This document shows, piece after piece, positions 10,114 through 40,181 of a DNA stretch of 64,000 nucleotides. Both the position numbers and the translations under genes were made by a program. The notes beneath the pieces were generated by a model that saw only the letters and a program-made list of their open reading frames with translations, did no database searches and had not been told where the DNA came from. Origin of the DNA: a plasmid. Position 1 is the stretch's first letter. Each line of letters opens with the position of its first letter. The stretch lies in sequence record AP029161.1; one strand, 5' to 3'.

Positions 10114-10127
10114 TTAGACAGTCCGTT
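10114..10127 (+). promoter_or_regulatory. late-operon motif TTAGACAGTCCGTT, copy 1 (upstream of terS)
   Basis: 33 nt before the ATG at 10160. TAAATT lies 17 bp after TTAGACA. Confidence 0.55.
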
Positions 10128-10159
10128 ACAAACCCAATAAATTATTTTTTGGGGGTGTT

Positions 10160-10624
10160 ATGAAAAAGCAAACTAAAAAAATAAAAAACCCAAAAGGATC
10201 TGGTCGAAAAAAACTATTTCAAGAAAAGTATCACGAAGAAATTATTCAGACCATGAAAAAAGGCCAAGGAGTTTCATTTTTTGCAGCTAAGATAGGAGTT
10301 TCAAAACAAACCATCTACAACTGGATTAACGAAAATGTAGAATTTAAGGAATCATTTGAAATTGCTCAGACAGCATGCCAAGCATTTTGGGAGAATTTGG
10401 CTTTAAATAATGCAGTAACAGCAAAAGGAAATGGGAATCAAATACAATACCAAATGAGTAAAAGATTTAGAGATGACTATGCTGATTCTTCTCAAATAAA
10501 TATTTTTAACTCTAATAATCAAAATGTAAATAGATCTATAAAAGATATGACAAGAGAAGAACTAGAAGCATATGAAAAAGATTTACTTCAAAAGTTGAAT
10601 TTAGAAAGCAATAATGAGCATTGA
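10160..10624 (+). CDS. terminase small subunit-like HTH protein
   Basis: Basic N-terminus with HTH (GVSKQTIYNWINEN). It lies immediately upstream of terL and overlaps it. Confidence 0.5.
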   Translation: MKKQTKKIKNPKGSGRKKLFQEKYHEEIIQTMKKGQGVSFFAAKIGVSKQTIYNWINENVEFKESFEIAQTACQAFWENLALNNAVTAKGNGNQIQYQMSKRFRDDYADSSQINIFNSNNQNVNRSIKDMTREELEAYEKDLLQKLNLESNNEH

Positions 10625-12029
10625 TATTCAAGAAAGAATTGCAATTCTTGAAAAGCTAAAAAAGATAAAAGAAAGAAAAAAAGAGCAAGATGATTTTCTA
10701 TCCTTCTGTATAAAAAGTTTTCCCAGATATAAAGCTGGTTGGGTCCATGAAGAAATTTGTAAAAAGTTAGAAAAATTTGCTCATGATGTTTATCTTGAAA
10801 AATCTCCTAGACTGATGATCTTTATGCCACCAAGACATGGAAAATCTTTTTTAGTTAGCGAAAGATTTCCTGCTTGGGTTTTAGGTAAATACCCTTATTT
10901 TGAATTTATTTCTGCAACATATGGAAAATCTTTAACACAAGGCTTTTCAAGAAAGTGCAGAAATTTAATTCACTCAAAATGGATAAAAGAAATATTCCCT
11001 AACTTTGACTTAAAGAAAGATAGTAAATCAGTTGATTTTTGGGAAACAACTTATGGTGGAGCTTTCATCGCAACTAGTATTGGTGGATCAGTAACTGGTA
11101 AAGGCGCACACATTTTATCAATTGATGATCCTCATAAAGGTATAGAAGAAGTTTTATCAGAAGTGATGAGAAACAAAACTCATGATTGGTATAAAACAGA
11201 TGCTTTTACACGTCTTTTACCTGGCGGTGGAGTAATTTTAACTCTTACGAGATGGCACGATGATGATTTAGCAGCAAGAATATTAGCAGAAGATACGGAT
11301 AATGAATGGGAAGTAATTTGTTACCCAGCGATAGCTACTGAAGATGAAGCGCATAGGAAAAAAGGAGAAGCATTACATCCAGAACGTTATCCTTTAAAAA
11401 TGCTTCAAAAGCTTTTAAAAACCCTTGGTTCGTTTTTCTTTAATGCTCTCTATCAACAGGACCCAGTGCCTGCTTCTGGAACAGTATTTAAAAAAGAATT
11501 TTGGAGATTCTATAATGAGCGATTTACTTTTTACGACAAAATTATTCAGGTTTGGGATTTAAGTTTTAAGGGTGACGAGAAAAGCGACTATACTGTGGGG
11601 CAAGTTTGGGGCAAAAAAGGAGCAAACTTTTATTTACTCGATCAAGTACGAGGTCAATGGGAATTTACTCAGCAAATTGAACAAATAAAAATGTTATCAA
11701 AAAAATATCCACTTGCATATTCAAAATACATAGAAGAAAAAGCTACGGCGACAGCGGTTATTTCTACACTCAAAAAAGAAATTACAGGTTTAATTCCATT
11801 CAATCCAAAATCTGATAAATACTCACGAGCTTTAGTTGCACAGCCTCCACAACAAGCAGGAAATATTCATCTACCTAACCCTCAACTAAATCCTTGGGTA
11901 AACGATTATATTGATGAACATTCTCGTTTTCCAAAAGGCAAAAATGATGATCAAGTCGATTGTACAAGTTTGGCGATGATTCAATTAAATAATAATGGGC
12001 TGGAGCATTTAAAAGCTTTGGTTTCTTAA
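10614..12029 (+). CDS. terminase large subunit
   Basis: ATPase motifs PPRHGKS and ILSIDDPHK, coupling motif LTRWHDDDL, and C-terminal nuclease Asp cluster GKNDDQVDCT. Confidence 0.85.
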   Translation: MSIDIQERIAILEKLKKIKERKKEQDDFLSFCIKSFPRYKAGWVHEEICKKLEKFAHDVYLEKSPRLMIFMPPRHGKSFLVSERFPAWVLGKYPYFEFISATYGKSLTQGFSRKCRNLIHSKWIKEIFPNFDLKKDSKSVDFWETTYGGAFIATSIGGSVTGKGAHILSIDDPHKGIEEVLSEVMRNKTHDWYKTDAFTRLLPGGGVILTLTRWHDDDLAARILAEDTDNEWEVICYPAIATEDEAHRKKGEALHPERYPLKMLQKLLKTLGSFFFNALYQQDPVPASGTVFKKEFWRFYNERFTFYDKIIQVWDLSFKGDEKSDYTVGQVWGKKGANFYLLDQVRGQWEFTQQIEQIKMLSKKYPLAYSKYIEEKATATAVISTLKKEITGLIPFNPKSDKYSRALVAQPPQQAGNIHLPNPQLNPWVNDYIDEHSRFPKGKNDDQVDCTSLAMIQLNNNGLEHLKALVS

Positions 12030-12859
12030 ATTTTAAATCCGAAATGCTTAAATGCTTTTTCTAGTAAATTCTTTTCATCTTCGGTTAGATTATTTTCTAA
12101 AATGTAGTTGCTAAATTTTTCGCTAGTAAATTTTTTACTTTCTTTTTGGGGAACGCGTTCCCCAGTCAGCCCACAAATTAAATTAAGCTCATCGATTAGT
12201 TTATCATCGCTTTCCCATTTTTTCTTGGAAATATTACAAAGAGAACGAAGGCTGAATTTTTCAGGGAACTCTTTGATTAACTCTCTTGCTTTTATTGGCC
12301 ACTGACCAACTTTTATTATATTTTTAATATATTTTTTATCTCGACTAAATTTTTTCGCTATGTCGTCAGCATCCCATCCTTGCGCAACTAGATCAGCGTA
12401 GCCCTCAGCTACATCAATTGGATGCAAGTCTTCACGTAGTAAATTTTCAATTAAAGCATGTTCAGTTCGTTTTGAAGAATTAGATGAGTAAACTTTAAGA
12501 TTAGCTTTAATTTTTTCAATACCAAGTTCTTTGCATGCTAAGATTCTTCTATGACCAGCGACAGCAATTAGTTCAAAATCATCACCATCAATGTTTCTCC
12601 TAACCTCAACTAGAACTGGCTGGATCACTCCCTCACTTGCAATACTATTCTTTAAATCCAAAAATTCAGGTTTACTAATATCAATTCTGTTTCTAATATT
12701 TTCATTTAATTTTATCTGATTTACGTTTAATGCCACTGTTTTATTTTCTTCAGCAGCTTTTTCATAAAGTAAAACAGTATTTAGTCTATCAGAATTAGAA
12801 ACAACGCTAGCAAATCTACTTAATTTTTCAGCTTCAATCGCTTGACTAATAGTACTCAT
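12026..12859 (-). CDS. parB: ParB-like partition protein
   Basis: ParB-box motifs GHRRILACKELG and ENLLREDLHPID. It lies downstream of parA and overlaps it by 4 nt. Confidence 0.8.
   Translation of the reverse strand: MSTISQAIEAEKLSRFASVVSNSDRLNTVLLYEKAAEENKTVALNVNQIKLNENIRNRIDISKPEFLDLKNSIASEGVIQPVLVEVRRNIDGDDFELIAVAGHRRILACKELGIEKIKANLKVYSSNSSKRTEHALIENLLREDLHPIDVAEGYADLVAQGWDADDIAKKFSRDKKYIKNIIKVGQWPIKARELIKEFPEKFSLRSLCNISKKKWESDDKLIDELNLICGLTGERVPQKESKKFTSEKFSNYILENNLTEDEKNLLEKAFKHFGFKI
12148..12163. promoter_or_regulatory. 16-bp perfect palindrome GGGGAACGCGTTCCCC (candidate parS copy inside the parB 3' end)
   Basis: Identical to the copy at 13810..13825. A GC palindrome of this kind is very improbable by chance in AT-rich DNA. 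Confidence 0.5.
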
Positions 12860-13737: not shown

Positions 13738-13809
13738 TCTCCTTTAATAAAATTTTTAATTAAAAATATTTTATTAAATTTTCATGTGATTAAAAGAGTC
13801 AAAAAAAAT

Positions 13810-13896: not shown

Positions 13897-14550
13897 TTAG
13901 TTGAACATTCTTCCAGTTTTTTGAATATTTTTTTCTACTTCTTTTGCCTGAAGTGCTAATTGTTCAATTATTTCTTGATGAGGTCTATTTTTAAATTTAT
14001 CTATTACAGCTCTTCGTTCAGGATTATCAGGTGGTAGAACAGTTAGTATAACAGCTGCCATATTCTCCATATTTCCTTCTAATTGCTTAACCTTTTCCTC
14101 TAACTTAGATACTCTTTCAACATCTGCTTTATCGTTAATTTTAACATCCAATTTTGTAATGTCTTCAACTGTTGCAACTGTTGATCTAGAAAGTCTCTCT
14201 CTATTTATGTAGTTCAAAACGCCCGATGATGGAGCAAAGTAATTTTTTTTGTAAATGAAATTTGGATCATTAGGTTTAACTTTCCAAACTAAAACTCCTT
14301 TAAGTATAAGTTTCTCCCTTAGCGAATCAAAAGATTGTCCTTCTGAAATTAAACCAGCTCTTTCAAAATCATGTCGATAAAGCAAAACAAATTCTCCATC
14401 TCTTTTTTCTAATGGAGCTTCAACAAAAGCGTTTAGTAAAAAATGAGCTAGTTTCGATGCACTTTCAATTTTTTTTCTTCGTAAAAATTGTTCCAAGCTT
14501 CCATAGACCTTATATTTACCATTTACAGCCATGTTACTTCGTCCTTCCAT
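13897..14550 (-). CDS. putative replication initiator (Rep). Assignment is by context only.
   Basis: Gene lies immediately downstream of the iteron array and upstream of parS-parAB. The protein itself has no recognisable motif, only a C-terminal coiled coil. Confidence 0.35.
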   Translation of the reverse strand: MEGRSNMAVNGKYKVYGSLEQFLRRKKIESASKLAHFLLNAFVEAPLEKRDGEFVLLYRHDFERAGLISEGQSFDSLREKLILKGVLVWKVKPNDPNFIYKKNYFAPSSGVLNYINRERLSRSTVATVEDITKLDVKINDKADVERVSKLEEKVKQLEGNMENMAAVILTVLPPDNPERRAVIDKFKNRPHQEIIEQLALQAKEVEKNIQKTGRMFN

Positions 14551-15242: not shown

Positions 15243-15671
15243 TTAGCGTTTTTTTAAAACAAGTTCCCATTCATAGCCCAGACCTTCAACGACTTTATTA
15301 AACGTAGAAATAGAAGGTTCACGCTTTCCATCTTCGTATTGTGAATAAGATGTTTTTGCGCAATTCAATTTGTCGGCAATTTTAGATTGTGAGAAATGTT
15401 CTTTATTCCTAATACTTTTGAATATTGTGGATGTAGCTAGTTTGAAGTTTTTAAACTTAATGTAAAATCGAACATCATCAACAATTTCAAGAGTAAAATC
15501 ATCATCCTTAAATTTTTCTTTCGAATTACAATTGAACATTAAAAGTAATCGATTGTTTAGTTTGCTAAAAAGATCTTCAACATCAGCCGTAGAGATTTCT
15601 AAAACATCAAGCAGTTCAATTTTTGCAATCCATCGTTCATTTTTAAAATAGTATTGGCCTTCCAAGTTCAT
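15243..15671 (-). CDS. XRE-family HTH repressor (CI-like) with C-terminal HTH
   Basis: SQSKIADKLNCAKTSYSQYEDGKREPSISTFNKVVEGLG helix-turn-helix. Lies divergent to the 15731 gene with a palindromic operator between them. Confidence 0.6.
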   Translation of the reverse strand: MNLEGQYYFKNERWIAKIELLDVLEISTADVEDLFSKLNNRLLLMFNCNSKEKFKDDDFTLEIVDDVRFYIKFKNFKLATSTIFKSIRNKEHFSQSKIADKLNCAKTSYSQYEDGKREPSISTFNKVVEGLGYEWELVLKKR

Positions 15672-15692
15672 AAATTTTTCTCCTAAATTTCG

Positions 15693-15708
15693 ACAGTCAA
15701 TTGACTGT
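15693..15708. promoter_or_regulatory. perfect 16-bp palindrome ACAGTCAATTGACTGT (candidate operator of the 15243 repressor)
   Basis: Centred in the 59-bp divergent intergenic region. Confidence 0.55.
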
Positions 15709-15730: not shown

Positions 15731-16060
15731 ATGGATAAAAAAAAGTATTTTTGTAAAAATTGGGAACAAATGGAGGGACCTATGCAAAATTATATTTCGG
15801 TCACAGAATCAGAAATTGAAAAAATTAAAAATGAATTTGAATTTTACATAAATAAATTGTCAGAGATAAGTTCAATTTTAAATAATGAAATGGAAGCTTC
15901 TTTAGTCCTTCTATCTGCTGCAAGAATAAATATAGATAATATAAATGATAAGTTTAAAGTTGATTTTCCTTTGGCTGCTGAGCTATATAAAAATTTGTCT
16001 ACACAGGTTAAAGATTTTGAAGATGAAATTGCAGCTCATATAATTGCGGCTAAAAAATAG
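15731..16060 (+). CDS. hypothetical protein
   Basis: ORF track. Confidence 0.4.
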   Translation: MDKKKYFCKNWEQMEGPMQNYISVTESEIEKIKNEFEFYINKLSEISSILNNEMEASLVLLSAARINIDNINDKFKVDFPLAAELYKNLSTQVKDFEDEIAAHIIAAKK

Positions 16061-16628: not shown

Positions 16629-16682
16629 TTACTATTTGGACATTCCGTTTATCTCTTCTTAATATAAAAATTAGGAGGAGAT

Positions 16683-18041
16683 ATGAAAAAGATTCAAAAT
16701 CTCAAAAAAACAAATGAATTAAATTTAGATGGCTGGCAAGATGTAAAGAGAGGTTTAAACTCTTTTAAAGACAAAAGAAATTCTATTCAATTAACTGATT
16801 TTTCGGTCAGTAAATCTTATGCTGATATTCTTTACAAAACCGATAGCCTAGCAAAAAAAATAGTTAACGAACCAGTTGAAGACTCGCTTAGAGAAGGTTT
16901 TAGTTATGTTCTTAAAAGAAAAAAAGAATCTGAAAAATTAAACCATGAGTTTAAACGTTTGCACTTAAGAAACAAAATAGAGTCAGCTTGGAAAGATGCA
17001 AGAAAATATGGAGGAGCTGTACTTCTTTTTGGGTTTGATGATGGAGATACGTTAGTAAATGAATTGGAAATAGAAAAAATTAAAGGAATAAAATGGATAC
17101 TTCCTTTTAATAAACATCAAATACAAGCAGAAGGAATTGATGAAAATTTAGAGTCATCAAACTTCGGAAGACCTTTATTTTATAAATTTAACTATTCAAA
17201 TAATTTTAAAGAAAATAACAATGTTGTAGAAAAATTCCACGCTTCAAGATGTATAGTTTTTGATGGAGATATTTTAGATTATGAAAGTTTTAAAAGAAAT
17301 GGATTTTTTCACGAAAGCATTCTAACCTCAATTTATCCAGCCCTAAAAAATTACAATATAGCCCACGAAAGTATAGCCGCTGCATTTCCTGAAATATGGC
17401 AAGGAATTTATAAAATTCCGTCATTTATGGATGCAGTAGCTTCTAGCAATGAGGAATTAGTTAAAAAAAGAATCCAAATAATGGATGATATGCGCTCAAA
17501 TTTTAGGGCATTAGTTTTAGGTGAAGGTGAAGATTTTGACAGAAAAGCTTTATCATTTGCAGGAATTCCTGAACTATTAAATAAAGTGACAGAAAGACTT
17601 GTTGCTGTAGCAAAAATGCCACACACAAAATTACTAGGTGAAGGTAGCCAAGGAAATACTAGCGGACGAACAGAGCAAACTGAATGGTACGATATTGTTT
17701 CTCACATTCAAGAACAATATCTACAACCTAAATTAGAAACTATTGGAGAGTATTTAAAACAATATATTTGTCAAGATAAAGAGCAGGAAATACAAATAGA
17801 ATTTAATTCTTTGTACCAGCAAGATCCATTAAAAGAAGCTGATGTCTATTTAAAATATGCACAAGCTGATAATCTTTATATTAATAACCAAACAATAGAT
17901 CCGCATGAAGTAGCGCAATCAAGATTTAGTGGGCTTAAATTTGGAAATAGAATTATTCTTGATAAAAAAATAAGAAAGGCTAATAAATTAACTTCTGAGA
18001 TTACAGAAAATAATGGAAATAGCGAGCCAGAAAATGAATAG
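16683..18041 (+). CDS. portal protein
   Basis: 452 aa; position immediately upstream of the Mu-F-like gene. SD aggagg upstream. Confidence 0.6.
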   Translation: MKKIQNLKKTNELNLDGWQDVKRGLNSFKDKRNSIQLTDFSVSKSYADILYKTDSLAKKIVNEPVEDSLREGFSYVLKRKKESEKLNHEFKRLHLRNKIESAWKDARKYGGAVLLFGFDDGDTLVNELEIEKIKGIKWILPFNKHQIQAEGIDENLESSNFGRPLFYKFNYSNNFKENNNVVEKFHASRCIVFDGDILDYESFKRNGFFHESILTSIYPALKNYNIAHESIAAAFPEIWQGIYKIPSFMDAVASSNEELVKKRIQIMDDMRSNFRALVLGEGEDFDRKALSFAGIPELLNKVTERLVAVAKMPHTKLLGEGSQGNTSGRTEQTEWYDIVSHIQEQYLQPKLETIGEYLKQYICQDKEQEIQIEFNSLYQQDPLKEADVYLKYAQADNLYINNQTIDPHEVAQSRFSGLKFGNRIILDKKIRKANKLTSEITENNGNSEPENE

Positions 18042-18876
18042 CATTCAATTTATTGAATATGCTCTTTTGAATTCAAAACCAAATTTAAAAGTCAGAATTC
18101 AAGCTGAACCTCCAATTTCTCTTGAACGTCAATTTCAAAATGAAGTTCAAAATTTAGTAAAACCATTTTTTAAGAAATTTAGAAATGATTTACTTTTAAA
18201 ATATAACAATTGGAATGATAAATATTCTTTAAATTTAGATTCTGAAGATGAAGAAGATAAGAGTGATATTGAAATATTTTTCAGTAATATTTTAAAAGGA
18301 TTAGGAATTTATTTTAGCTATAAAGTTTTAAAATCATTAATTAGTAATTTTGCACAAAAGATTTTTTTCTTTTCAAAAAACAAATTATCTAATCAGTTGG
18401 AAAAAATATTTGGATTGAAGCCATTTTATAGTCAAGAAAATTTAAAAATAGCAATTAATTTATGGGTGGAAAAGAACATAACTAAATTGAATAATAATTT
18501 AATTCAGTATGTAAATAATAATAAACTTACAATTTATTCAATGCTTGAAAAAGAAGAAAAAGGAAAAGATTATTTAAAAAAACAAGTAATTGAAAATGAA
18601 TTTAAATTTGAGTCTTCCATTGCCTTCTTAGCTCGTGATCAGGTTTCTGGGCTTGACGGCTTATTAACTAAAATTTTGCATGCGGAAATAGGTTTGGACG
18701 ATTTTATATGGTCAACATGCAGAGATGACAAAGTAAGACCCACACATCGAGCACTAGAAGGTAAGCTATGTTCTTGGTCTAACTTACCGAAATCAAATGG
18801 AATTTATATATATCCAAGTTCAGAAAATGGTTGTAGATGTGTTGCTCGCCCATTAGTTAGTCGCAAATTAATTTAG
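18013..18876 (+). CDS. head morphogenesis protein (Mu gpF / SPP1 gp7 family)
   Basis: C-terminal STCRDDKVRPTHRALEGK motif, characteristic of Phage_Mu_F. Confidence 0.7.
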   Translation: MEIASQKMNSIQFIEYALLNSKPNLKVRIQAEPPISLERQFQNEVQNLVKPFFKKFRNDLLLKYNNWNDKYSLNLDSEDEEDKSDIEIFFSNILKGLGIYFSYKVLKSLISNFAQKIFFFSKNKLSNQLEKIFGLKPFYSQENLKIAINLWVEKNITKLNNNLIQYVNNNKLTIYSMLEKEEKGKDYLKKQVIENEFKFESSIAFLARDQVSGLDGLLTKILHAEIGLDDFIWSTCRDDKVRPTHRALEGKLCSWSNLPKSNGIYIYPSSENGCRCVARPLVSRKLI

Positions 18877-18886
18877 ACAGTCCGTT
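18873..18886 (+). promoter_or_regulatory. late-operon motif TTAGACAGTCCGTT, copy 2
   Basis: 21 nt upstream of the ATG at 18907. Confidence 0.55.
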
Positions 18887-18906
18887 TTTAATTAAATATT
18901 TTTTAA

Positions 18907-20022
18907 TTGATTCAAGAAAATAATTTTTTGAATCCAATGGAGATTTTTTTAATGAGTGCCAATGTTTTTCCAAGTTACTCAAGGCAAGTAACAAATTATA
19001 CTTTACAAAGTGAAGAGAGTGAATCTATTAATTTGCAAGGTTTGCAATTTAACTATAATGAGTCTCAATTTATAGCTACAGTTAACAATAAATATGAGAA
19101 AATTATTAACTTTAAAAGAGAAGGTAATAATATATTTTTTGAAACTGATTCTTTGTTAATCACGCCAGATAGTGGCAAACCTACAACTAATATTATTGTC
19201 AAAAATAAAACGAAACAAATACTTTCTTATAACTTATATGTAGTTCCATGGTGTGATACTTATTTTGATGAAATTTGTGATATTAAGAAATCGATAGCAA
19301 ATAGCTCATTTAATTTTAATAAAACATTTCCATCTATTGAGTTTATACCATCTAATTCTATTACTACCTTAACTCATAATTTAAATAGAAGTGTCGCTGA
19401 TCTGACAGTTAGGATTTTAGACTTTTCTGAAAATCCAACTATTAAGAGGCCAATATATGGTAAATTTATTGGTGGTATTTTTAATTATGAAAATGTTGTT
19501 ATCTCACAAAATGTTTTAAACCCAAATAATGCTATTGATGTTAAATTTAATTCAGACGTAAAGCCAAGCTATTGTCTCATGAAATTAGAAGGTAGAAATT
19601 TAACATTAGAATTTCTCGATAGTCAAAATAAAAACTTTAACTTTTCAAATAGAAATTTAGACCAAGGTGCTTCTGATTTATTAAAACACAATTTAAACAT
19701 TGATATTTCAGTCTTGCCAATCCATGTGAAAATTGAGTACTTAGTAAATGGAAAAGCTGTTTTTGTCCCTGCTAACAAACCTAGAACATTAAAATTTAGC
19801 AAGATTGGAAATAGCACGTTAGCTAATCTTTTGAATCAAGATATTCTTTCAGACTCAGGAAATATTGTATTAATTATTTCAAATGAAAATCCTAAAAAAG
19901 AAATCACAATCAGCAATAATGTTGGATTAATTGCAAATAATTTTAAATCAATTGGTTATACAATTGATGTTAATGAGGTATTTGTTGGATTAACTTTGCA
20001 CATTGAATTAAAACAAGAATAA
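18907..20022 (+). CDS. hypothetical protein (371 aa), first gene of a block inserted into the head module
   Basis: ORF track; Asn-rich, no motif. Confidence 0.4.
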   Translation: MIQENNFLNPMEIFLMSANVFPSYSRQVTNYTLQSEESESINLQGLQFNYNESQFIATVNNKYEKIINFKREGNNIFFETDSLLITPDSGKPTTNIIVKNKTKQILSYNLYVVPWCDTYFDEICDIKKSIANSSFNFNKTFPSIEFIPSNSITTLTHNLNRSVADLTVRILDFSENPTIKRPIYGKFIGGIFNYENVVISQNVLNPNNAIDVKFNSDVKPSYCLMKLEGRNLTLEFLDSQNKNFNFSNRNLDQGASDLLKHNLNIDISVLPIHVKIEYLVNGKAVFVPANKPRTLKFSKIGNSTLANLLNQDILSDSGNIVLIISNENPKKEITISNNVGLIANNFKSIGYTIDVNEVFVGLTLHIELKQE

Positions 20023-21890: not shown

Positions 21891-22691
21891 TTATTTTTCA
21901 ATATAATATTCTAATGTAAAATTACTAAATACTCTGCATGTATCGTTATTTGTACAATCCCCATAAGATCCAAATCTAAATCCATTAACACGAAGTAAAA
22001 TAAAGTCTAAACCCTTAATAGGCAATTTCTTTACTTCGTTGTTTTGGATTTTTTCAGCCACTTCAGAGCAGCTGCCTGCATTTTTGTATTTAATTGTATC
22101 GATAGCAAATTCAAAAGTTGAATACAATCCTTTGAAAGATTTGTAGCACAATAAATAACTACTAGTATGATATGAATTTCCAACTGTTCCCCATATTCCA
22201 ATATCTATGTGATATTTATCGTCAGAACCTTTTCCATCAACTGATTTTATTGGATCGAATGCAATTTTATCAGGAATCTTGATAAATGAATGCTTATCAT
22301 TTGGAAATAGAGAAGATTTAGAAATTGAGTAATTTGTTGAATCAAATATTCCATCTGATTCAACTAGATTTTTATAATCAAAATCAGCATTTATCTCAGC
22401 ATCAATTTTAAAATCTGATGTTTCATTGTTTAGAGTTAATTTCCCATTTCCAAAATGCAAAACAGATTCTTTTTCTTTAACCGCAATTGGATGAAAATCA
22501 GGTGGATTTACTGGCGGTAATGGTGCTTCTGGCTCTAATGGTGGAGGATTAACTGGTTTATTTTGAGTTGGTGTTTCTATATTTTCACTTCCTGCATTTG
22601 AAGCGTTACCGCTACTTTTTTGATTTTCACCTTTATTACAAGAAACAGTAAGTAAAGGAATTAAAAGAAAAGGAAGCATCATTTTTGACAT
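21891..22691 (-). CDS. Pro-rich lipoprotein (moron candidate)
   Basis: Signal peptide plus LLTVSC lipobox-like Cys, and a PPPLEPEAPLPPVNPP tract. It sits in antisense orientation inside the structural region. Confidence 0.5.
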   Translation of the reverse strand: MSKMMLPFLLIPLLTVSCNKGENQKSSGNASNAGSENIETPTQNKPVNPPPLEPEAPLPPVNPPDFHPIAVKEKESVLHFGNGKLTLNNETSDFKIDAEINADFDYKNLVESDGIFDSTNYSISKSSLFPNDKHSFIKIPDKIAFDPIKSVDGKGSDDKYHIDIGIWGTVGNSYHTSSYLLCYKSFKGLYSTFEFAIDTIKYKNAGSCSEVAEKIQNNEVKKLPIKGLDFILLRVNGFRFGSYGDCTNNDTCRVFSNFTLEYYIEK

Positions 22692-22782: not shown

Positions 22783-23136
22783 TTAGGCAAGCAGATCTTC
22801 AAACAGGTCTTTCAATTTGCTTGAAGAATGTTTCGAGTAAAGTTTAACAAGTTTTCTAAACTTTTCATGACTAAATTTTTTCTTAACTTTTCCATTTTTT
22901 ATCAAGTCAAGATATTTATTTTTAATTTTATTGCTACAGTATAAAGATTTTTTCGTTTTATTTATTTTAATATAGCCATCATGTTTAAAATTATTCCTTT
23001 TAAAAAACATAGTAATAGCTGAATGACTTGTGCCAAGTAATTCAGATAATTCATAAAGAGTGTATTGTTGATTTGGATTTAAATTTAATATTTTTTCTGA
23101 CCATTTAGGAAGAGGTCTTCCTCCTTTAAATTCCAT
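22783..23136 (-). CDS. HTH DNA-binding protein, paralog B (candidate late regulator)
   Basis: GGRPLPKW..YTLYELSELLGTSHSAITMF is paralogous to the N-terminus of the upstream gene. Confidence 0.45.
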   Translation of the reverse strand: MEFKGGRPLPKWSEKILNLNPNQQYTLYELSELLGTSHSAITMFFKRNNFKHDGYIKINKTKKSLYCSNKIKNKYLDLIKNGKVKKKFSHEKFRKLVKLYSKHSSSKLKDLFEDLLA

Positions 23137-23540
23137 TATTTCTCCAATATTTTACACAGTTCTTTTGCTATATTTTTGTCTGACTTAGCACTAATCGTTA
23201 AAAATAGATTAATTTTATGTTCAAGTTTTTCTTTTCTCTTAGCTATTTTTTTTATATCGCATACAATTAATTCATCAACAAGACCTTTTTCTCTCAATAG
23301 TTTTTTTTGTATTCCTGTTCTTATGTCTTGACCTAAAAAAAGACAAACTCTCGATCTTAAATGTATTTTGCGATATCGCGATGGTTTAATTTTTGCTTTT
23401 CTTATTTGACCTTCAATAGCATTCTTACTTTTATTGAAGATAAGACTTAAATCTTCAAATGAATATTCGATAGTAGGATCTAAATCAAAAAATCCCGTTA
23501 CCCAATCAGCAAAAGATCTTCCTCTATATGTCTTTATCAA
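23136..23540 (-). CDS. HTH DNA-binding protein, paralog A (TTG start)
   Basis: RGRSFADW..YSFEDLSLIFNKSKNAIEGQI. The start lies inside the conserved leader, with TTG in place of ATG. Confidence 0.45.
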   Translation of the reverse strand: MIKTYRGRSFADWVTGFFDLDPTIEYSFEDLSLIFNKSKNAIEGQIRKAKIKPSRYRKIHLRSRVCLFLGQDIRTGIQKKLLREKGLVDELIVCDIKKIAKRKEKLEHKINLFLTISAKSDKNIAKELCKILEK

Positions 23541-23574
23541 TTCAGTTCTCCCTATGGGATTGGTTTTACATTGA

Positions 23575-23587
23575 CGGACTGTCTAAA
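23575..23587 (-). promoter_or_regulatory. late-operon motif, copy 3a (reads TTAGACAGTCCGT on the minus strand; drives the regulator/lipoprotein operon)
   Basis: Plus strand reads ACGGACTGTCTAA. Confidence 0.5.
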
Positions 23588-23602
23588 TTGTTTAGTTAAA
23601 GA

Positions 23603-23613
23603 GACTGTCCGTC
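23603..23613 (+). promoter_or_regulatory. late-operon motif variant GACTGTCCGTC, copy 3b (faces the head operon)
   Basis: Forms an imperfect dyad with 3a (TTGACGGACTGTC .. GACTGTCCGTCAA). Lies 35 nt before the ATG at 23648. Confidence 0.45.
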
Positions 23614-23647
23614 AAAGTGCTTTTATATTGAGCTATGAGGAGGCTTC

Positions 23648-24814
23648 ATGTCAACTGGGTACAATTTTGTAAAAATAAATACCGACAAACCGCACATAAC
23701 ATCGCAGGGTTTTTTAAGATGCAAGGTTGCAGCAAGTAAAACAGGAGTCTTCACTTATTATGATAAGCACGGAAAAATTAGAAGAGAGTTAAGACTACCA
23801 GAGGAAGTCTTTAATAAAGATAGCATGGCTAGTTTGGCGAATATTCCTTTTACTAATGATCATCCTTTAGAAGCTGTTAATGCTTTTAATTCAGAAAAAT
23901 ATACTAAGGGTTTTACAGATTCTACAGTTCAACAAAATAAAGATTTACTAGAAACCTACGTAACTATTACTGATGCAAAACTAATTCAAAATATTTTAGA
24001 TGGAAAAAAAGAAGCATCAGCAGGATATTCGAGGGATTTAGAATATAAAAGCGGAGAATACGAAGGAAAACCATACGACTGCATTCAAAGAAATATTCGC
24101 TACAACCATTTAGCTCTCGTAAATAAAGGTAGAGCAAATAAAGATGAAGAATTAGCAAGAGTAAAGTTAATTTTAGATTCAGCAGATGCTGAAGATGATA
24201 TTTCGATAGAAATAGAAAATGAAAATTTAAATAGTTTAGAAAAAGAAGGAGAAAAATTTTCTATGAAGTTAAATTTAGATGGTATTGATCACGAATTTAC
24301 AGATGCTAATTTAGCAATTGCTGTAAATGATAAAATAAATAAAGATCTATTAAAAATAAATGAACTAAAAAATGCAAATGAAGATTTTAAGAAAAAGCTT
24401 GATGCTGTTAGTGCAGAAAAAGACGCTCTTAAGCTTAATTTAGATTCATTAAGCAATGAAATTAATGAATTGAAAAACGCTCCAAAAATTGATGATAAAT
24501 TGATATTAGAAAAAGCAAACGAATTAATTGAAGTTAAATCTTTTGTGGCTAGAGCCTTACCAAAGCTAAATCTAGACGGACTCAGTGCGGAAGAAATCAG
24601 AAAACAATTTGTCTCAGAAAAATTTGGAAAAGAACATACTAGTGACAAATCGATTGATTACATCAGAGCTTCATTTGATGCGTTTAAGAAATTAAATAAC
24701 GTTACTAATAATGATGCAGAAGCAAAAGCAGTGGCGAGTCATTTTCAAAATAGCACTAATGATTCAAGAGCTTCAGCAAGAGATAATTATATGAATAAAT
24801 TTTCTGGTAAATAA
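23648..24814 (+). CDS. prohead protease / scaffolding fusion protein (XkdF/DUF2213-like N-terminus, coiled-coil C-terminus)
   Basis: Position before the capsid gene. C-terminal half is a heptad coiled coil (KINELKNANEDFKKKLDAVSAEKDALK). Confidence 0.45.
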   Translation: MSTGYNFVKINTDKPHITSQGFLRCKVAASKTGVFTYYDKHGKIRRELRLPEEVFNKDSMASLANIPFTNDHPLEAVNAFNSEKYTKGFTDSTVQQNKDLLETYVTITDAKLIQNILDGKKEASAGYSRDLEYKSGEYEGKPYDCIQRNIRYNHLALVNKGRANKDEELARVKLILDSADAEDDISIEIENENLNSLEKEGEKFSMKLNLDGIDHEFTDANLAIAVNDKINKDLLKINELKNANEDFKKKLDAVSAEKDALKLNLDSLSNEINELKNAPKIDDKLILEKANELIEVKSFVARALPKLNLDGLSAEEIRKQFVSEKFGKEHTSDKSIDYIRASFDAFKKLNNVTNNDAEAKAVASHFQNSTNDSRASARDNYMNKFSGK

Positions 24815-34545: not shown

Positions 34546-34582
34546 ATTATAATAATTAGTAAAATAATATAAAATAAATAAT

Positions 34583-34596
34583 TTAGACAGTCCGTT
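34583..34596 (+). promoter_or_regulatory. late-operon motif TTAGACAGTCCGTT, copy 4 (upstream of dam)
   Basis: 39 nt before the ATG at 34635. TATTAA lies 17 bp after TTAGACA. Confidence 0.55.
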
Positions 34597-34634
34597 AATT
34601 CTCTCCTATTAAAAATTTAGGAGGTTTTTTATTT

Positions 34635-35480
34635 ATGCAACCAGCATTTAGCTACTATGGCGGCAAGTGCCGCATGGCAAAAGAGATTTTAAAATTGACA
34701 CCCAATCACGTAACTTACGTGGAACCTTTTTGTGGTTCTGCTGCAGTTTTATTCAAAAAGAATTACATAGAGCCATCAAGTAAATATCAGGAGGTTATTA
34801 ATGATAGTAATGGGTATTTAATTAATTTTTATCGTCAATTAAGAAACAACGGAGATCAGTTAATTGAAAAACTTGAACAAACTCTTTATTCAAAAGCTGA
34901 GCATGAACTAGCAATTAAAATTGCTAAAAATCTTGATCAGTATTCCGAGCTTGAGAGAGCATGGAGTTTCTATGTTAATATTCAGCAATCATTTTCTAGT
35001 TCTTTAAATAAGGTTTGGAATATTTCCAGATGCTCAAAGAGCATGTCGTTTACATGGGTAAATAAGTTAAAAAATTTAAGAGAAATTCACTCAAGGCTTT
35101 TAGAGCTTACTGTAGAAAACGAAGATGCAATTAAATGCATTCAGAAATGGGATGATCATGGGGTCTTTTTTTATGTAGATCCTCCTTATATTAATACTGA
35201 TTGTGGGCATTATAAAGGTTACACTGTAGAACAGTATAAAGAGCTTATTTATACTTTGGATCACTGCAAAGGTTCTTTTATTTTATCATCATATGAGAAT
35301 GAATACTTGCCTAAAAAATGGAAAAAAGAGTTTCATGAACTGAAAGTAACATTTAATTCAAAAATAAAAGATAAGTCTCGGACAGAAGTTTTAAGTTTCG
35401 TAGATCGTTCTCGCTATATTAAAGATGAAAAAATCAAGGAAAATGCTAAAAAATTTGGGGAGTTATTAAGGGCTGTATAG
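34635..35480 (+). CDS. dam: N6-adenine DNA methyltransferase (Dam / D12 class)
   Basis: Motif I VEPFCGSAAV and motif IV DPPY (YVDPPYINTD). SD taggagg. Confidence 0.8.
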   Translation: MQPAFSYYGGKCRMAKEILKLTPNHVTYVEPFCGSAAVLFKKNYIEPSSKYQEVINDSNGYLINFYRQLRNNGDQLIEKLEQTLYSKAEHELAIKIAKNLDQYSELERAWSFYVNIQQSFSSSLNKVWNISRCSKSMSFTWVNKLKNLREIHSRLLELTVENEDAIKCIQKWDDHGVFFYVDPPYINTDCGHYKGYTVEQYKELIYTLDHCKGSFILSSYENEYLPKKWKKEFHELKVTFNSKIKDKSRTEVLSFVDRSRYIKDEKIKENAKKFGELLRAV

Positions 35481-35493
35481 AATATTTAGAACA

Positions 35494-35808
35494 CTATTTT
35501 TTTCTTTTAATTTCATAAATCGTATCGTTTAAAGTATCGTGATCAAATCCAATATAATCTTTTGTTATTTCAACTATTTCTTTTGAAGTTGAATGTGATA
35601 TTTCATTTTTTTTCATCTGCAATTTACTTTTCTTTAGTTCTAGTTCTTGAATTTCAATTAAATGTTTATCAATTTGCAAATCTATTTCTTCTATATCGAG
35701 ATCGATATTTTTAAATTCTAAATTAATTATATTTCTTAACTTGTCTAGCTCTTTTTCTAACATCACAAGAATCCCTCGAAACCAAAATATGATACTATAT
35801 ACTATCAT
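35494..35808 (-). CDS. small coiled-coil protein
   Basis: ORF track; antisense orientation between late units. Confidence 0.35.
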   Translation of the reverse strand: MIVYSIIFWFRGILVMLEKELDKLRNIINLEFKNIDLDIEEIDLQIDKHLIEIQELELKKSKLQMKKNEISHSTSKEIVEITKDYIGFDHDTLNDTIYEIKRKK

Positions 35809-35872
35809 AAATATTATTAATTAACATAAAAAATATAGAAACATTTAAATAAATGATTTTAGTATACTTAAT

Positions 35873-35886
35873 TTAGACAGTCCGTT
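35873..35886 (+). promoter_or_regulatory. late-operon motif TTAGACAGTCCGTT, copy 5
   Basis: 32 nt before the ATG at 35919. Confidence 0.55.
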
Positions 35887-35918
35887 CTTCTTTTTTTAAA
35901 TTGAAAAGAGGAGGTTTT

Positions 35919-36236
35919 ATGGCTTTATTTGAAATCCCATTAATAAAATATAAATATTATGAATTTTCAGTTCCTCTTGATGGAATCTTATATAATTTTG
36001 AATTTTGCTGGAACGAAAGAGCTGAAAGATTTTTTATTAGCCTTTTTGATTCAGAAAAGAACTTAATTATAGCGAGTGTCCCTGCAGTTTTAAAAATCCC
36101 ACTTTTTTATGGAATAAAAGAAAAAAGACTCCCTAAAGGACAGCTATTATTTATAGACACGACTAATTCATTAAAAAAACATAATTTTGAGGATTTTGGA
36201 ACAAAAATAAAATTATTTTATGAAGGAAAAAATTAA
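35919..36236 (+). CDS. baseplate-module protein (start revised from the TTG at 35901 to the ATG at 35919)
   Basis: SD agaggagg lies 5 nt upstream of the ATG. Confidence 0.4.
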   Translation: MALFEIPLIKYKYYEFSVPLDGILYNFEFCWNERAERFFISLFDSEKNLIIASVPAVLKIPLFYGIKEKRLPKGQLLFIDTTNSLKKHNFEDFGTKIKLFYEGKN

Positions 36237-37066: not shown

Positions 37067-37836
37067 GTACACCTTCATTTTATCAAGTAATATTTGATAC
37101 AATTGATTCTCATATCAAAAAAATTCACACATCTATGCCTGCTATAGTAAAATCATATGATGAGAAGCTTCAAAAAATTTCTGTGCAACCATGCTTTATG
37201 GATAAAGAAATTGATGAAATAACAGGACTGGAAATACCTAAACCTTTACCAGTTATCCAATCTGTTCCAGTTTTATTTCCAAGAACAAAATTTTCTTACA
37301 TTCACTTTCCAATTGATATAGGTGATTATGTTTTGTTAATTTTTACAGAAAGAAGCATTGATAAATTTACGCAAATTGGTGGTCTTGTTGAGTCCGATGC
37401 TAATTATAAACATGAACTAACTGATTGTGTTGCTCTAGCTGGCTTTTATCCTTTTTCTCATCCAATGCTAGGTGTAGACAAAAAAGCTTTGCAAATAGTA
37501 AATAATTTGTCAGAAATTAAGCTAGCAGAAGATGGAAAAATTTATTTGTCAAATCGTGGAGCTGTTTCTGCAGAAGCTAAACTTCCAGATGAACCTTTAG
37601 TTTTAGGAAATATATTAGTTGAATTTTCTAATAAATTAATTGAATTAATTGATAAAATAGCAGACGCTTTACAAAAAAATATAGGGGTTGGCAATTTAGG
37701 AGCTCCAGTTCCTGCTTCTCCATCACTAATAGCTGAATTAAAAAAAATTCAAATTGAATTAAAAAACAACAAAAGTATTTATTTAGATAACAGTGAAACA
37801 AATATAAATTCAAACCATTTTTTTGGAGAAAAATAA
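37063..37836 (+). CDS. baseplate protein (spike/XkdR-like position)
   Basis: Position. Confidence 0.35.
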   Translation: MSTPSFYQVIFDTIDSHIKKIHTSMPAIVKSYDEKLQKISVQPCFMDKEIDEITGLEIPKPLPVIQSVPVLFPRTKFSYIHFPIDIGDYVLLIFTERSIDKFTQIGGLVESDANYKHELTDCVALAGFYPFSHPMLGVDKKALQIVNNLSEIKLAEDGKIYLSNRGAVSAEAKLPDEPLVLGNILVEFSNKLIELIDKIADALQKNIGVGNLGAPVPASPSLIAELKKIQIELKNNKSIYLDNSETNINSNHFFGEK

Positions 37837-38063
37837 TGCCTTATACAAGTGCGGATGGAAAAGCTATTTATTTAAAAAATTTAAAAATTTCACTAAATAT
37901 GTCTGACTCTGATGCAAATCAAGAAATATTAGACAAGCAAGCTGAAGCTTTTGCTAAATCAATAGAAGAAATTTTACCTTTAATTTTAGTGACTGTGAGT
38001 CCATTAGGATTAGCAAACCCAGCTGGAAAAGTTGAAGGTATAGCTTTTGGTAAATTGTCATGA
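37836..38063 (+). CDS. small baseplate-module protein
   Basis: Position. Confidence 0.3.
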   Translation: MPYTSADGKAIYLKNLKISLNMSDSDANQEILDKQAEAFAKSIEEILPLILVTVSPLGLANPAGKVEGIAFGKLS

Positions 38064-38437
38064 TTGATCTCAAACTAAATGATGAGAACGATTTAGTTAT
38101 TAATCATACAGGTGATTTTGAGTTAATAAATAACGAAAAAGAATATTACAAACAGAAAGTAAAGTTAGAATTAAATACATTTTATAGCGAGTGGTTTTTA
38201 GATTCTGAAGTAGGTCTTGCTTGGCATGAGATGTTAGGAAATAAAGATTTTGATGAATCCAAATTAAATTTATATTTAAAGAAAAAAATTGAAGAAATAG
38301 ATGGAGTTAAAGAAGTTGAAATAATTAGTTCAGATTTAAATAGAGAAAAAAGACATTGTAATATAAGTTTAAAAATAAAAACAAAAAATGAGATTATCCA
38401 ACTAAATAATATTAAAGCAGGTAACAAAAATGGATAA
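38060..38437 (+). CDS. baseplate wedge protein (XkdS/gp25-like by size and position)
   Basis: 125 aa, immediately upstream of the baseplate J-like gene. Confidence 0.4.
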   Translation: MIDLKLNDENDLVINHTGDFELINNEKEYYKQKVKLELNTFYSEWFLDSEVGLAWHEMLGNKDFDESKLNLYLKKKIEEIDGVKEVEIISSDLNREKRHCNISLKIKTKNEIIQLNNIKAGNKNG

Positions 38438-39602
38438 AAAGTATGGTCTAACTAAATCTGGATTTGTAAAAAAAGATTTTCTTACTTGCTATTCGGAAAT
38501 AAGCGAATCTTTTAAAAGTAAAATAAATCAAAATATTGATTTAAGTCCTACATCTGTTTTTGGAAATATAATAGGAATTTTTGCAGAAAGAGAATCTTTA
38601 TTGTGGGATGGATTACAAGAGTTAAGTACAGCTATGAATCCAAATAACGCCACAGGAATACCATTACAAAATGCTATAGCCATTAATGGAATTTCAAAAC
38701 AAGAGGCGACAGCTTCAAAAGTTGTTCTAACATTTTCTGGAAAAATAGGAACAAAAATTCCAGCTGGAACAGGTGTTGCAATTCCTGATACTTCTTATCA
38801 ATTTAATACAAAATTAGACTCAGTAATTGGACAAAATGGGACTGTTGATATTGAAGCTGAATGCTCAATTTTAGGAGAAGTAAAAGCTTTAGCAGGAAGC
38901 ATTACTAAGATTTTAAATCCGATTTATAATATTGAGTCATGTGCAAACAAAAATGATGCGGTTGTGGGTCAATTTGAAGAAACGGAAGAAGATTTAAAAA
39001 TTAGAAGATTGCAATTACTGCAAAGAGCTGGTTCAGCAACTGAAAAAGGAATTCGTGCAGCAATACAAAAAGTTGAGGGTGTTAAAACATCTATATTATT
39101 AAATGCTGAAACTTCAAAATATATTCCTTCTGGTTCAATTCATTTGTATGTCGAGGGTGGCGAACCATTGGCAATTGCAAATGCAATTAATAATTCAAGA
39201 GGTGGTGGCTGCCTCTTATATTCAGATGAAAGTTCTATTAAAAATACCATAAAAGATTCTCAGGGAATCGACAGAGTAATTTCATTTTCTCGACCAAAAG
39301 AAAAAATAATTTATCTTTCAATTGCTTTAAAAACAAATTCAGATTTTCCTGTAAATGGATTTGATCAAGTTAAAAGTTCAATTATTGATTATGCAAATAA
39401 AAATTTAACGATTGGAAAATCACTAATAAATTCCTCTTTATATGTACCTATAAATTCTGTTAGTGGAATAATAGGAATTCAAATTTATCAAGGAATAGCT
39501 CCTAATCCAACCGATTCAATAAATATACAAGTAGAGCCTATTGAATATGCCAAATTAGATACATCAAGAATAAATTTTATTGATTGGAAAGGTAAATTTT
39601 AA
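38430..39602 (+). CDS. baseplate J-like protein (XkdT / gp6-like)
   Basis: 390 aa, follows the wedge gene, typical size and order. Confidence 0.6.
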   Translation: MDKKYGLTKSGFVKKDFLTCYSEISESFKSKINQNIDLSPTSVFGNIIGIFAERESLLWDGLQELSTAMNPNNATGIPLQNAIAINGISKQEATASKVVLTFSGKIGTKIPAGTGVAIPDTSYQFNTKLDSVIGQNGTVDIEAECSILGEVKALAGSITKILNPIYNIESCANKNDAVVGQFEETEEDLKIRRLQLLQRAGSATEKGIRAAIQKVEGVKTSILLNAETSKYIPSGSIHLYVEGGEPLAIANAINNSRGGGCLLYSDESSIKNTIKDSQGIDRVISFSRPKEKIIYLSIALKTNSDFPVNGFDQVKSSIIDYANKNLTIGKSLINSSLYVPINSVSGIIGIQIYQGIAPNPTDSINIQVEPIEYAKLDTSRINFIDWKGKF

Positions 39603-40181
39603 TTGGAAAAAATAGAAAATCATGCTGAAGAAGCTAAAAAAAGATTATTAAAACAATTTCAAAATAGCAAAATATTAAATGATTTTGTTGAAACAATTGG
39701 AGAAAGATTTCAAGAATTAGAAGATGAGCTTTTTAATTTATATTTACTGAATTATTTGAATGCAGAAGGAAATAAACTAGATGATTTTGGAGATATTATT
39801 GGGTCTTTGAAAGCTGGACTTGACGATGAGAAATTTAAAAACTTGTTAACTGCAGCTATTTGCGAAAATAATTCAGAAGGAACAATTGAAGATTTAATTC
39901 AGATTTGTAGACTCTTAACCCGTCCAAAAAAGGTTTTACTTTTTGAATCCGCTCCTAATCAAGTTTCTTTAGTTTCTATCAATCCTCAGCCTCTTGCAGA
40001 TTTAAAAACAATTTCCAGAGCATTGAGAAGTTCAAAACTTGCTAATTCAGAACTTTCTACATTTTTAATTAATTTAGACAGTCCGTATTTATTTTGCGAA
40101 AGTCAATTCATAAAGCCATGCGGATTTGGAATTGAAGAAATTCCAAAATCTGGTGGAAGATTTGCGATAGAATTGGAGTAA
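39603..40181 (+). CDS. tail protein (XkdU/DUF2313-like position), TTG start
   Basis: Follows baseplate J. Late motif copy 6 lies in its 3' end. Confidence 0.4.
   Translation: MEKIENHAEEAKKRLLKQFQNSKILNDFVETIGERFQELEDELFNLYLLNYLNAEGNKLDDFGDIIGSLKAGLDDEKFKNLLTAAICENNSEGTIEDLIQICRLLTRPKKVLLFESAPNQVSLVSINPQPLADLKTISRALRSSKLANSELSTFLINLDSPYLFCESQFIKPCGFGIEEIPKSGGRFAIELE
40074..40087 (+). promoter_or_regulatory. late-operon motif TTAGACAGTCCGTA, copy 6 (internal to the 39603 gene, upstream of the tail-fibre/lysis genes)
   Basis: Exact 13-mer. Confidence 0.45.

Follow-up and report, generated by a model that had tools for sequence, protein, structure and literature searches.

Putative activator-dependent late promoters with Shine-Dalgarno-masking hairpins in an apparent phage-plasmid of Pigmentibacter ruber

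The phage-plasmid P1 carries 11 late promoters, in which an ordinary −10 is combined with a conserved site for the early-expressed activator Lpa (PMC10695390, PMC8198154). The present analysis concerns a 13-mer, TTAGACAGTCCGT, found in front of late gene blocks in a 64,000-nucleotide stretch of the plasmid record AP029161.1 (the window, meaning that whole stretch); judged by sequence comparison, this block is almost certainly the shared upstream half of phage late promoters. P1 is the closest described system in function, being likewise a phage-plasmid with many dispersed late promoters that join a −10 to a conserved phage-specific element. The P1 element is a 9-bp inverted repeat, whereas the block described here is an asymmetric 16-nt sequence lying over a −35-like hexamer, with only GACnGTC palindromic, and for its asymmetry it is not an element of the Lpa type. 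The hosts are also unrelated (Bdellovibrionota here, Enterobacteria for P1), and no PHROG or Pfam match suggesting Lpa was found among the early-region and candidate-regulator proteins scanned, a direct comparison with the Lpa sequence not being part of the scan. In the middle promoters of T4, a MotA box near −30 replaces the normal −35, and a TAnnnT −10 is read by the host sigma, a process called sigma appropriation. The window shares with these promoters a conserved box in a similar position and a TAnnnT −10, but its sequence is different, it spans 16 nt rather than ~9 nt and a near-consensus −35-like hexamer is retained; no MotA or AsiA domain was detected among the roughly 60 window proteins scanned against Pfam (coverage was incomplete for most small open reading frames (ORFs, <110 aa), for structural genes and for some larger ORFs, of which 474-1238 was included and 62645-63319 left out). 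The late motif is a member of neither the P1 Lpa nor the T4 MotA family, the element being unrelated in sequence and a homologous protein undetected. A second T4 device concerns translation: on longer transcripts of genes e, soc, 49 and I-TevI, the Shine-Dalgarno sequence (SD) is locked in a hairpin (PMC3014915). By folding, a ribosome-binding site sequestered in a hairpin on upstream-initiated transcripts was found here as well; in T4 it affects a few individual genes with a gp55-type TATAAATA promoter, whereas here it is predicted for most late-regulon heads, in a fixed register and with a different promoter type. Additionally, the RinA/ArpU/LtrC group, Mu C and P2 Ogr are comparable as small phage DNA-binding proteins from an early or middle operon, usually encoded just upstream of terS, that switch on packaging, morphogenesis and lysis genes, RinA being presented as such a late activator of temperate phages (PMC3152322). 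The late-activator regulon itself is thus a familiar arrangement; new here would be the orphan regulator family, the promoter element and the host clade, and the predicted regulon-wide coupling of promoter and ribosome-site lock is unusual.

The window almost certainly derives from a phage-plasmid of roughly 68 kb of Pigmentibacter ruber, a member of the Silvanigrellaceae (Bdellovibrionota). The protein of 7046-7615 is 100% identical to GTC16762_32490 of P. ruber, and strain GTC16762 has been reported to carry a circular plasmid, pGTC16762-2, of 67,953 bp and 27.75% GC, in a description that does not mention a phage (PMC11385108); a literature search on phages of Silvanigrellaceae found none described. 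The window has the look of a complete tailed phage with ParA/ParB. Family searches identified terS, terL, ParB, ParA, the portal, a Mu-F-like head protein and the head protease, as well as baseplate proteins, an endolysin, a D12-class adenine methylase, RecT, SSB and an S24-type CI-like repressor, and the labels given to terS/terL, portal, Mu-F-like protein, protease, methylase, baseplate and endolysin in an earlier note, made from the sequence alone, proved right. Searches of the window for tRNAs and Rfam families returned none of either.

Copies and layout of the late element

Seven copies of the motif had been listed in the earlier note. The six exact ones stand, at 10114, 18873, 34583, 35873 and 40074 on the plus strand and, in place of 23575, at 23574-23586 on the minus strand; the variant placed at 23603 lies at 23600-23612 (AGAGACTGTCCGT, three mismatches, facing the protease gene), and an eighth site, TTGGACATTCCGT at 16636-16648 (two mismatches, 34 nt 5' of the portal gene), had been overlooked. 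With up to two mismatches allowed, seven matches were found in the window, including the six exact ones, against a mean of 0.51 and a maximum of 3 in 100 dinucleotide-preserving shuffles, which bears out the claim of a recurrence beyond chance; the claim that no copies occur elsewhere is true at the same threshold, further matches with three mismatches being devoid of the downstream layout. All eight sites are co-directional with the next gene, as had been stated. The distance to the first start codon, put at 15-40 nt in that note, is 33-39 nt from the motif end at six of the eight copies (terS 10160, portal 16683, winged-helix 23540(−), protease 23648, methylase 34635 and baseplate 35919); it rises to 66 nt at 18873, the gene there in fact starting at ATG 18952, and to 97 nt at 40074, where the copy lies inside ORF 39603-40181 and is followed by gene 40184. 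The conserved block reaches AAT upstream and T downstream (~16-17 nt overall), and the flanks further upstream are unconserved, so that a dispersed repeat or mobile element was rejected. Similarly, a parS site, replication iterons and a pac site were rejected, as the copies are dispersed, strand-specific and each phased with a −10 and an SD. The GACAGTC palindrome to which attention had been drawn is probably irrelevant, because the motif is used in a strictly strand-specific way.

Relatives were recovered by an exact-pattern scan and protein-anchored fetches, and comprised a 67.6-kb contig of Silvanigrella paludirubra (R1), a 63.4-kb contig of Fluviispira vulneris (R2), a 66.3-kb plasmid of another P. 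ruber strain (R3), a metagenome contig (L158) and a truncated terS remnant on pGTC16762-1, a plasmid of the same strain GTC16762. Six exact copies were found in R1, and four exact copies with one more of a single mismatch in R2, all heading the genes that they head in the window; an exact copy precedes terS in R3, in L158 and in the remnant. The scan of related genomes proposed earlier was in agreement with the regulon, and an equal frequency in unrelated host DNA, which had been named as evidence against it, was not seen: 124 kb of the non-phage plasmid pGTC16762-1 (29-30% GC) contained, at up to two mismatches, a sole copy, the one preceding the terS remnant. Compared with the window, R1, R2 and R3 have the terS-terL cassette in the opposite orientation, and it has retained its own motif copy. 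The DNA of R2 is only ~66% identical to the window, and the protein of ORF 39603-40181 only 50% identical, yet the 13-mer that lies in frame in this ORF is identical at all synonymous positions in the window, R1 and R2, which indicates selection on the DNA sequence itself.

Alignment of 21-22 sites from five replicons on the motif gave a standard order of AAT-TTAGACAGTCCGT, an 11-nt pyrimidine-rich spacer, TAnnnT, 7 nt, SD GGAGG and an ATG 4-9 nt later. The aligned features were a pyrimidine-rich stretch at offsets 14-24, T25, A26 and T30, and GGAGG at offsets 38-42. TAnnnT stands at offset 25, 12 nt past the motif, in 11 of 22 sites and nAnnnT in 14 of 22 (background 3.3% per position), and at any other offset from 14 to 44 TAnnnT occurs in at most three sites. 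A −10 of the sigma-70 type is thus present at a fixed position, and so is a −35-like hexamer of that type, TAGACA (offsets 2-7) matching TTGACA in five of six bases and lying 17 bp upstream of the −10 at all canonical sites; the SD starts exactly 7 nt past the −10. Among the matches listed, 138 chance copies of the 15-mer in unrelated contigs of viruses and bacteria all lacked the hexamer at its fixed offset. Plain consensus promoter scans of this AT-rich DNA returned no more sites than did shuffles and were uninformative. At least four copies lie in gaps that must hold a promoter, several of these being short gaps beside a gene of opposite orientation (10061-10159, 35809-35918 and the divergent region 23541-23647); a promoter is needed before terS because the upstream gene, 8960-10060, is on the opposite strand, and the gene upstream of the baseplate operon, 35494-35808, is also on the opposite strand. 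The late-promoter reading of the earlier note, with TTAGACA as a −35-like element and an A/T-rich −10 17 bp on, is supported by the alignment of 22 sites, by the chance copies and by these gaps.

Perfect TTGACA hexamers occur in two early divergent regions, 2505-2715 and 48576-48768. The early promoters of the phage carrying this hexamer, the host polymerase can be taken to recognise a −35 of the TTGACA type, and the late −35-like element would then be a class of its own rather than the local promoter consensus. The predicted +1 falls at motif offsets 36-38, on the first SD base, and at the 18873 site on the first base of a conserved hairpin. Two other promoter types were considered and rejected: an extracytoplasmic-function sigma promoter with CGT as its −10, as a conserved −35 is missing 16-17 bp upstream, and a T7-like promoter, as no phage polymerase was found among the roughly 60 proteins scanned.

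Hairpins over the ribosome-binding sites

The pyrimidine-rich spacer is an anti-Shine-Dalgarno sequence. When the stretch from just past the motif to the start codon was folded, a spacer/SD hairpin was found at 13 of 15 standard sites in five replicons, with energies of −6 to −16 kcal/mol and z values of −1.5 to −7.5. The pairing is site-specific: terS has CCCAA/TTGGG, the portal gene a perfect stem of 14 bp and the R2 baseplate gene CTCTCTAAA/TTTAGAGAG. Native 5' and 3' halves gave a mean of −10.1 kcal/mol, compared with −5.9 kcal/mol for chimeras of non-orthologous sites (Mann-Whitney p = 2e-5), and the native pair was better than every chimera at 9 of 12 sites. Of the SD-masking hairpins at 59 genes of the window that have an SD, the strongest four belong to the portal gene, 42985, the methylase and terS, three of the four being motif sites. 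Because native halves fold better than chimeras and motif sites are enriched among the strongest SD-masking hairpins, the spacer/SD hairpin is selected for.

The strongest was the portal hairpin (16650-16683, −15.8 kcal/mol, z −7.5), and the motif of this unit is exact in R1 and has one mismatch in R2. At terS, ~10128-10137 pairs with 10149-10158 (−8.9 kcal/mol, z −3.3); the baseplate unit has a 13-bp anti-SD/SD hairpin at 35886-35914 (z −3.8), and in the methylase unit the anti-SD/SD hairpin at ~34602-34624 is followed by a U-run. The methylase promoter, its gene and the adjacent minus-strand ORF 35494-35808 are missing from R2 as one unit. The motif at 18873-18885 and the TAG that terminates the Mu-F-like gene overlap, and the conserved hairpin (~18909-18934) has its 5' end at the predicted transcript start, at offset 37-38 in the window, R1 and R2; in R1 and R2 the hairpin of this site likewise follows the −10 by 7-8 nt, with stem sequences that differ by compensating changes as read from the aligned sequences. 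In the copy at 40074, which precedes gene 40184 and the lysis genes, the A at the −11 and the T at the −7 equivalents are retained in the window, R1 and R2. The promoter unit of the protease-capsid-tail operon was folded as well and showed no anti-SD hairpin. Convincing U-tracts are missing at most hairpins, although some have U-runs. The 5' arm ends by offset 28, the −10 occupies offsets 25-30 and the predicted +1 lies at offsets 36-38, so that a transcript begun there, at the usual 6-8 nt past the −10, would be without the 5' arm.

A further SD-sequestering hairpin, at 42950-42990 (−11.5 kcal/mol, z −5.8), lies 5' of gene 42985-43509 and has no motif; it could represent a different translational control on a cargo gene.

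Table 1. Predicted promoter units, regulator genes and repeats, with the coordinates of the window
Feature	Location	Strand	Description
Late promoter unit, terS	10111..10159	+	AAT + TTAGACAGTCCGT 10114-10126, anti-SD spacer, −10 TAAATT 10138-10143, SD GGGGG from 10151, ATG 10160
Late promoter unit, portal	16633..16685	+	TTGGACATTCCGT 16636-16648, −10 TAATAT 16660-16665, ATG 16683
Late promoter unit, gene 18952-20022	18870..18954	+	motif 18873-18885, −10 TATTTT 18897-18902, ATG 18952
Exact motif copy facing the winged-helix gene pair	23574..23586	−	left half of inverted repeat GACGGACTGTC / GACTGTCCGTC, in divergent region 23541-23647
Promoter unit, protease-capsid-tail operon	23600..23650	+	AGAGACTGTCCGT 23600-23612, −10 TATATT 23624-23629, SD GAGGAGG, ATG 23648
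Late promoter unit, adenine methylase (PF02086)	34580..34637	+	motif 34583-34595, hexamer at −10 position TATTAA 34607-34612, ATG 34635
Late promoter unit, baseplate operon	35870..35921	+	motif 35873-35885, −10 TAAATT 35897-35902, ATG 35919
Internal late promoter, last baseplate gene (39603-40181)	40071..40110	+	motif 40074-40086 in frame Leu-Asp-Ser-Pro; hexamer at −10 position GAAAGT 40098-40103
Best candidate motif-binding factor	5710..6132	+	140-aa early protein, C-terminal winged helix-turn-helix
Two tandem winged-helix genes	22783..23540 (23136-23540, 22783-23136)	−	distant relatives of 5710-6132
Inverted repeat, window			GACGGACTGTC / GACTGTCCGTC
Inverted repeat, R1			GAGCGGACTGAC / GTCAGTCCGCTC
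Inverted repeat, R2			GCAGACCG / CGGTCTGC

Candidate activator and competing explanations

The protein of 5710-6132 ends in a winged helix-turn-helix (HTH) domain, with a three-element HTH followed by a beta-hairpin wing, and is 91% identical to its counterpart in R1, 63% in R2 and 50-56% in R3. Of 11 sequences, eight agree throughout the stretch SDRNLKIVLRKRGIEP, which is predicted to include its recognition helix and has 12 invariant columns out of 16, and ten agree in the predicted DNA-reading helix itself; this invariance matches that of the motif. Homologues numbered only 11 among 5.8 billion proteins, and an exhaustive hidden Markov model search found only four clusters among 1.84 billion representatives; no Pfam domain was found in the homologues, and a repeat profile search for relatives added nothing. 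Apart from a weak match to phrog_3910 ('transcriptional regulator', E 0.0037), no PHROG or Pfam family was matched, sequence searches of the PDB with this protein and with that of 7046-7615 were empty, and Foldseek against viral structures returned only generic HTH matches (E >= 0.016). The family is an orphan, confined to this phage lineage. In every relative examined, the gene follows or nearly adjoins an RNase_T exonuclease gene in an early-type operon that lies just before the late genes; in L157, one of the relatives, RecT and SSB genes lie directly upstream of its counterpart. In a comparison of shared proteins that took in the retrieved parts of R1 and R2 and left out early regions past ~44 kb, few non-structural proteins were shared. 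The early-block proteins just upstream of terS common to these phages were the RNase_T exonuclease (4689-5411), 5710-6132, 6137-6445 and 7046-7615; among the others were ParA/ParB (mainly R2), 13897-14550, the HTH_3 protein 15243-15671 with the adjacent 15731-16060, the winged-helix pair 22783-23540 and, in R2 only, the lipoprotein-like 21891-22691. From its position and conservation, 5710-6132 is most likely the reader of the canonical motif.

With fair confidence, the late genes are proposed to have activator-dependent promoters used by the host polymerase, in which a winged-helix protein would cover ~−39 to −24 and a built-in hairpin would gate translation. The host RNA polymerase with its main sigma factor would read the −10. 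An extra factor is suggested because the invariant GTCCGT adjoins the −35-like TAGACA, itself unlike the early TTGACA, and this factor would be the early-operon protein 5710-6132, bound over the −35 region as a late activator, so that late genes would be switched on only once the early operon has run. A transcript from the predicted +1, ~7 nt past the −10 on the first SD base, would lack the 5' arm and be translatable; on read-through transcripts from upstream the SD would be masked, with termination possible where a U-run follows the hairpin, and as a consequence each late block would have its first gene expressed solely from the late promoter of that block.

Several points weigh against this mechanism. 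A start at the first SD base implies an unusually short leader, and if transcription began directly past the motif instead, the hairpins would throttle rather than gate translation. With TAGACA agreeing with TTGACA in five of six bases, the promoters might fire without an activator, and the conserved element would then be a possible repressor operator. The link between 5710-6132 and the motif consists of co-occurrence in one phage lineage and matching conservation, not of co-variation, of which there is no signal because neither partner varies. The contacts of one winged-helix domain usually cover less than 16 bp. Three site types, 23574(−), 18873 and 40074, depart from the standard layout. 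The reach of the shared-protein comparison, given above, also counts here, and 7046-7615 is another conserved early protein upstream of the late genes, of 189 aa with a CxxC-x13-CxxC pattern (85% identity in R1, 42% in R2 and 95% in R3, which also has a 45%-identical paralogue). This second protein had no matches in Pfam, PHROG or PDB sequences, its AF2 (AlphaFold2) model was unusable (pLDDT, the predicted local distance difference test, of 35), and it could be a co-factor of late transcription.

The foremost alternative, judged unlikely, is that TAGACA/17 bp/TAnnnT promoters are constitutive and that a phage repressor, 5710-6132 or another, sits on AATTTAGACAGTCCGT over the −35 and spacer and silences the late genes in the plasmid prophage. 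The ideal 17-bp spacing and the near-consensus hexamer are in keeping with it, as is a conserved block over the −35 and spacer, a frequent repressor position, and dispersed asymmetric repressor sites of 13-17 bp are known from the phage-plasmid P1 and mycobacteriophage L5. However, the mismatch in TAGACA falls on the second T of the −35, among its most conserved positions, and 5710-6132 belongs to an early lytic-type operon, next to an exonuclease gene (in L157 with RecT and SSB upstream), rather than to an immunity cassette. The zero-tolerance spacing of motif, −10 and SD suits a promoter element better than an overlaid operator, and the late genes of well-studied phages are under positive control (PMC10695390).

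Quite improbable is a direct reading of the motif by an alternative sigma, another host factor or an undetected phage sigma-like protein, with no separate activator. In one version the motif would be a single-element promoter with a start just downstream, and the hairpins of the 5' untranslated region (UTR) would limit low-copy proteins (terS, portal, methylase and first baseplate gene); it is consistent with this that the sole high-output operon, protease-capsid-tail, is without a hairpin. A motif identical in phages of three host genera is what a conserved host reader would lead one to expect, and in T4 a very divergent sigma-like protein reads late promoters that consist of a single element (PMC3014915). 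Nevertheless, no sigma-factor or RNA-polymerase domain was found in the proteins scanned against Pfam, and structural or other functions account for the largest ORFs of the window. Neither the TAnnnT fixed at offset 25 nor the SD placed exactly at offset 38 would be explained, CGT has no conserved second element 16-17 bp upstream, and the same-strain non-phage DNA, with its sole copy at the terS remnant, also argues against a general host reader.

Less credible again is a loading site for a processive antiterminator similar to lambda Q, perhaps 7046-7615 with its zinc motif, which would bind between the −35 and −10 of each late promoter and enable the polymerase to read through hairpin/U-run structures at the next operon heads. 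The lambda Q-binding element does sit between −35 and −10, as does the conserved GTCCGT between the −35-like and −10 elements here; U-runs follow some hairpins, and 7046-7615, upstream of the late genes, is conserved in R1, R2 and R3. On the other hand, that protein yielded neither a family match nor a usable structure, most hairpins are without a convincing U-tract, and Q systems have one late promoter, not eight. Finally, a motif acting in RNA, as a site of processing or protein binding within the 5' UTRs of long transcripts of the late genes, would account for the strand-specificity and the fixed distance to the start codon, but is very improbable, since the motif itself lies outside any conserved RNA structure (with no Rfam matches), its copies face outward from inverted or divergent cassettes for which no common upstream transcript is possible, and the phased −10 would go unexplained.

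If the activator-dependent mechanism is right, an unstudied phage group gains a transcription map with late operon boundaries, a predicted start at each and a testable regulator. Promoters within SD-masking hairpins at most operon heads suggest that the device of T4 gene e can serve as a general means of keeping late proteins off during read-through, and the 16-nt element with its orphan winged-helix partner would form a compact orthogonal promoter/activator pair of possible use as parts.

Divergent region, relatives and neighbouring genes

The two regulators at 22783-23540 had been put forward in the earlier note as the candidates for binding the motif. They are winged-helix proteins, and the family was right, as a profile comparison with hhalign related the pair to the 5710-6132 family (probability 83%, E 8.6e-6, 65 columns); they are, however, only 38-43% identical to their R1 orthologues in phages with an identical motif, and 5710-6132 is the better candidate. 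The inverted repeat between the pair and the protease gene changes along with the pair across the window, R1 and R2, which together with the constant motif suggests that the pair would serve the local repeat and 5710-6132 the canonical motif. Judged from these sequences, the pair probably binds the local phage-specific inverted repeat, where it would tune its own operon and the main head-tail operon. The −10 block TTTTATATTG of the protease promoter is kept in the window, R1 and R2, and the upstream element is different in each phage. The copy on the minus strand at 23574, which had been assigned to a regulator/lipoprotein unit, is exact; a standard −10 and hairpin were looked for there and neither was found. 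As these are missing and the gene has a leader common to early genes, the copy is probably an operator half-site rather than a standard late promoter. Tentatively, the orphan winged-helix family, with three members per phage, may form a cascade in which the conserved early member activates late promoters built into SD-locking hairpins and two fast-evolving relatives act as a phage-specific switch on the head-tail operon. A late block would then be translated only from transcripts begun at its own activator-dependent promoter, a single-gene device of T4 being extended to the standard build of an entire regulon.

The 25-nt leader AAATCCCAAAGGGAGAACTGAAATG is common to five genes, 2130(−), 2716(+), 48000(−), 48769(+) and, slightly varied, 23136-23540(−) (23541-23565, minus strand), and looks like a common early translation-initiation cassette. 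Sequences resembling TTGACAAATATTTACAA are repeated near the early regions and may be repressor operators. Another palindrome, ACAGTCAATTGACTGT, a perfect one of 16 bp at 15692-15707, separates the HTH_3 gene 15243-15671(−) from gene 15731(+). R3 also has this palindrome, and in R1 and R2 it has changed together with the regulator. It has ACAGTC in common with the late motif, of which it was rejected as a relative, varying with its own HTH_3 gene in R1 and R2 where the late motif is constant; a second Cro/CI-like switch, unrelated to that motif, probably has its operator here.

Megablast of 24 kb of the window against a phage collection gave no matches, and against a plasmid collection the sole match was the 161-bp terS remnant; for the RecT of the window, no relatives were found among viral contigs. 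The remnant (L149 19940-20177; AP029160.1 ~53991-54228), annotated as a coding sequence of 63 aa, still has the exact motif, the anti-SD hairpin and the SD, and represents the fossil trace of a related phage-plasmid. On pGTC16762-1, the large plasmid of the strain, it lies ~14 kb from a type II CRISPR-Cas9 locus.

Probable cargo or defence genes stand between the phage modules of the window, namely a Schlafen/AlbA_2 protein (8960-10060, minus strand), an ORF with a weak nSTAND3 NTPase match (44010-45614, minus strand) and a Vut_1 transporter fused to a GNAT acetyltransferase (50309-51502, plus strand). Comparable places in relatives (L154, L158) hold Kiwa KwaA/KwaB, AbiJ, BrnT/BrnA and an AcrIF11-like protein. 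The dUTPase of 54016-54621 was found to have an HTH_17 DNA-binding domain inserted at residues 62-109, an identical fusion being present in L157, and by analogy with the derepressor dUTPases of staphylococcal phages it might be a dUTPase-derived regulator.

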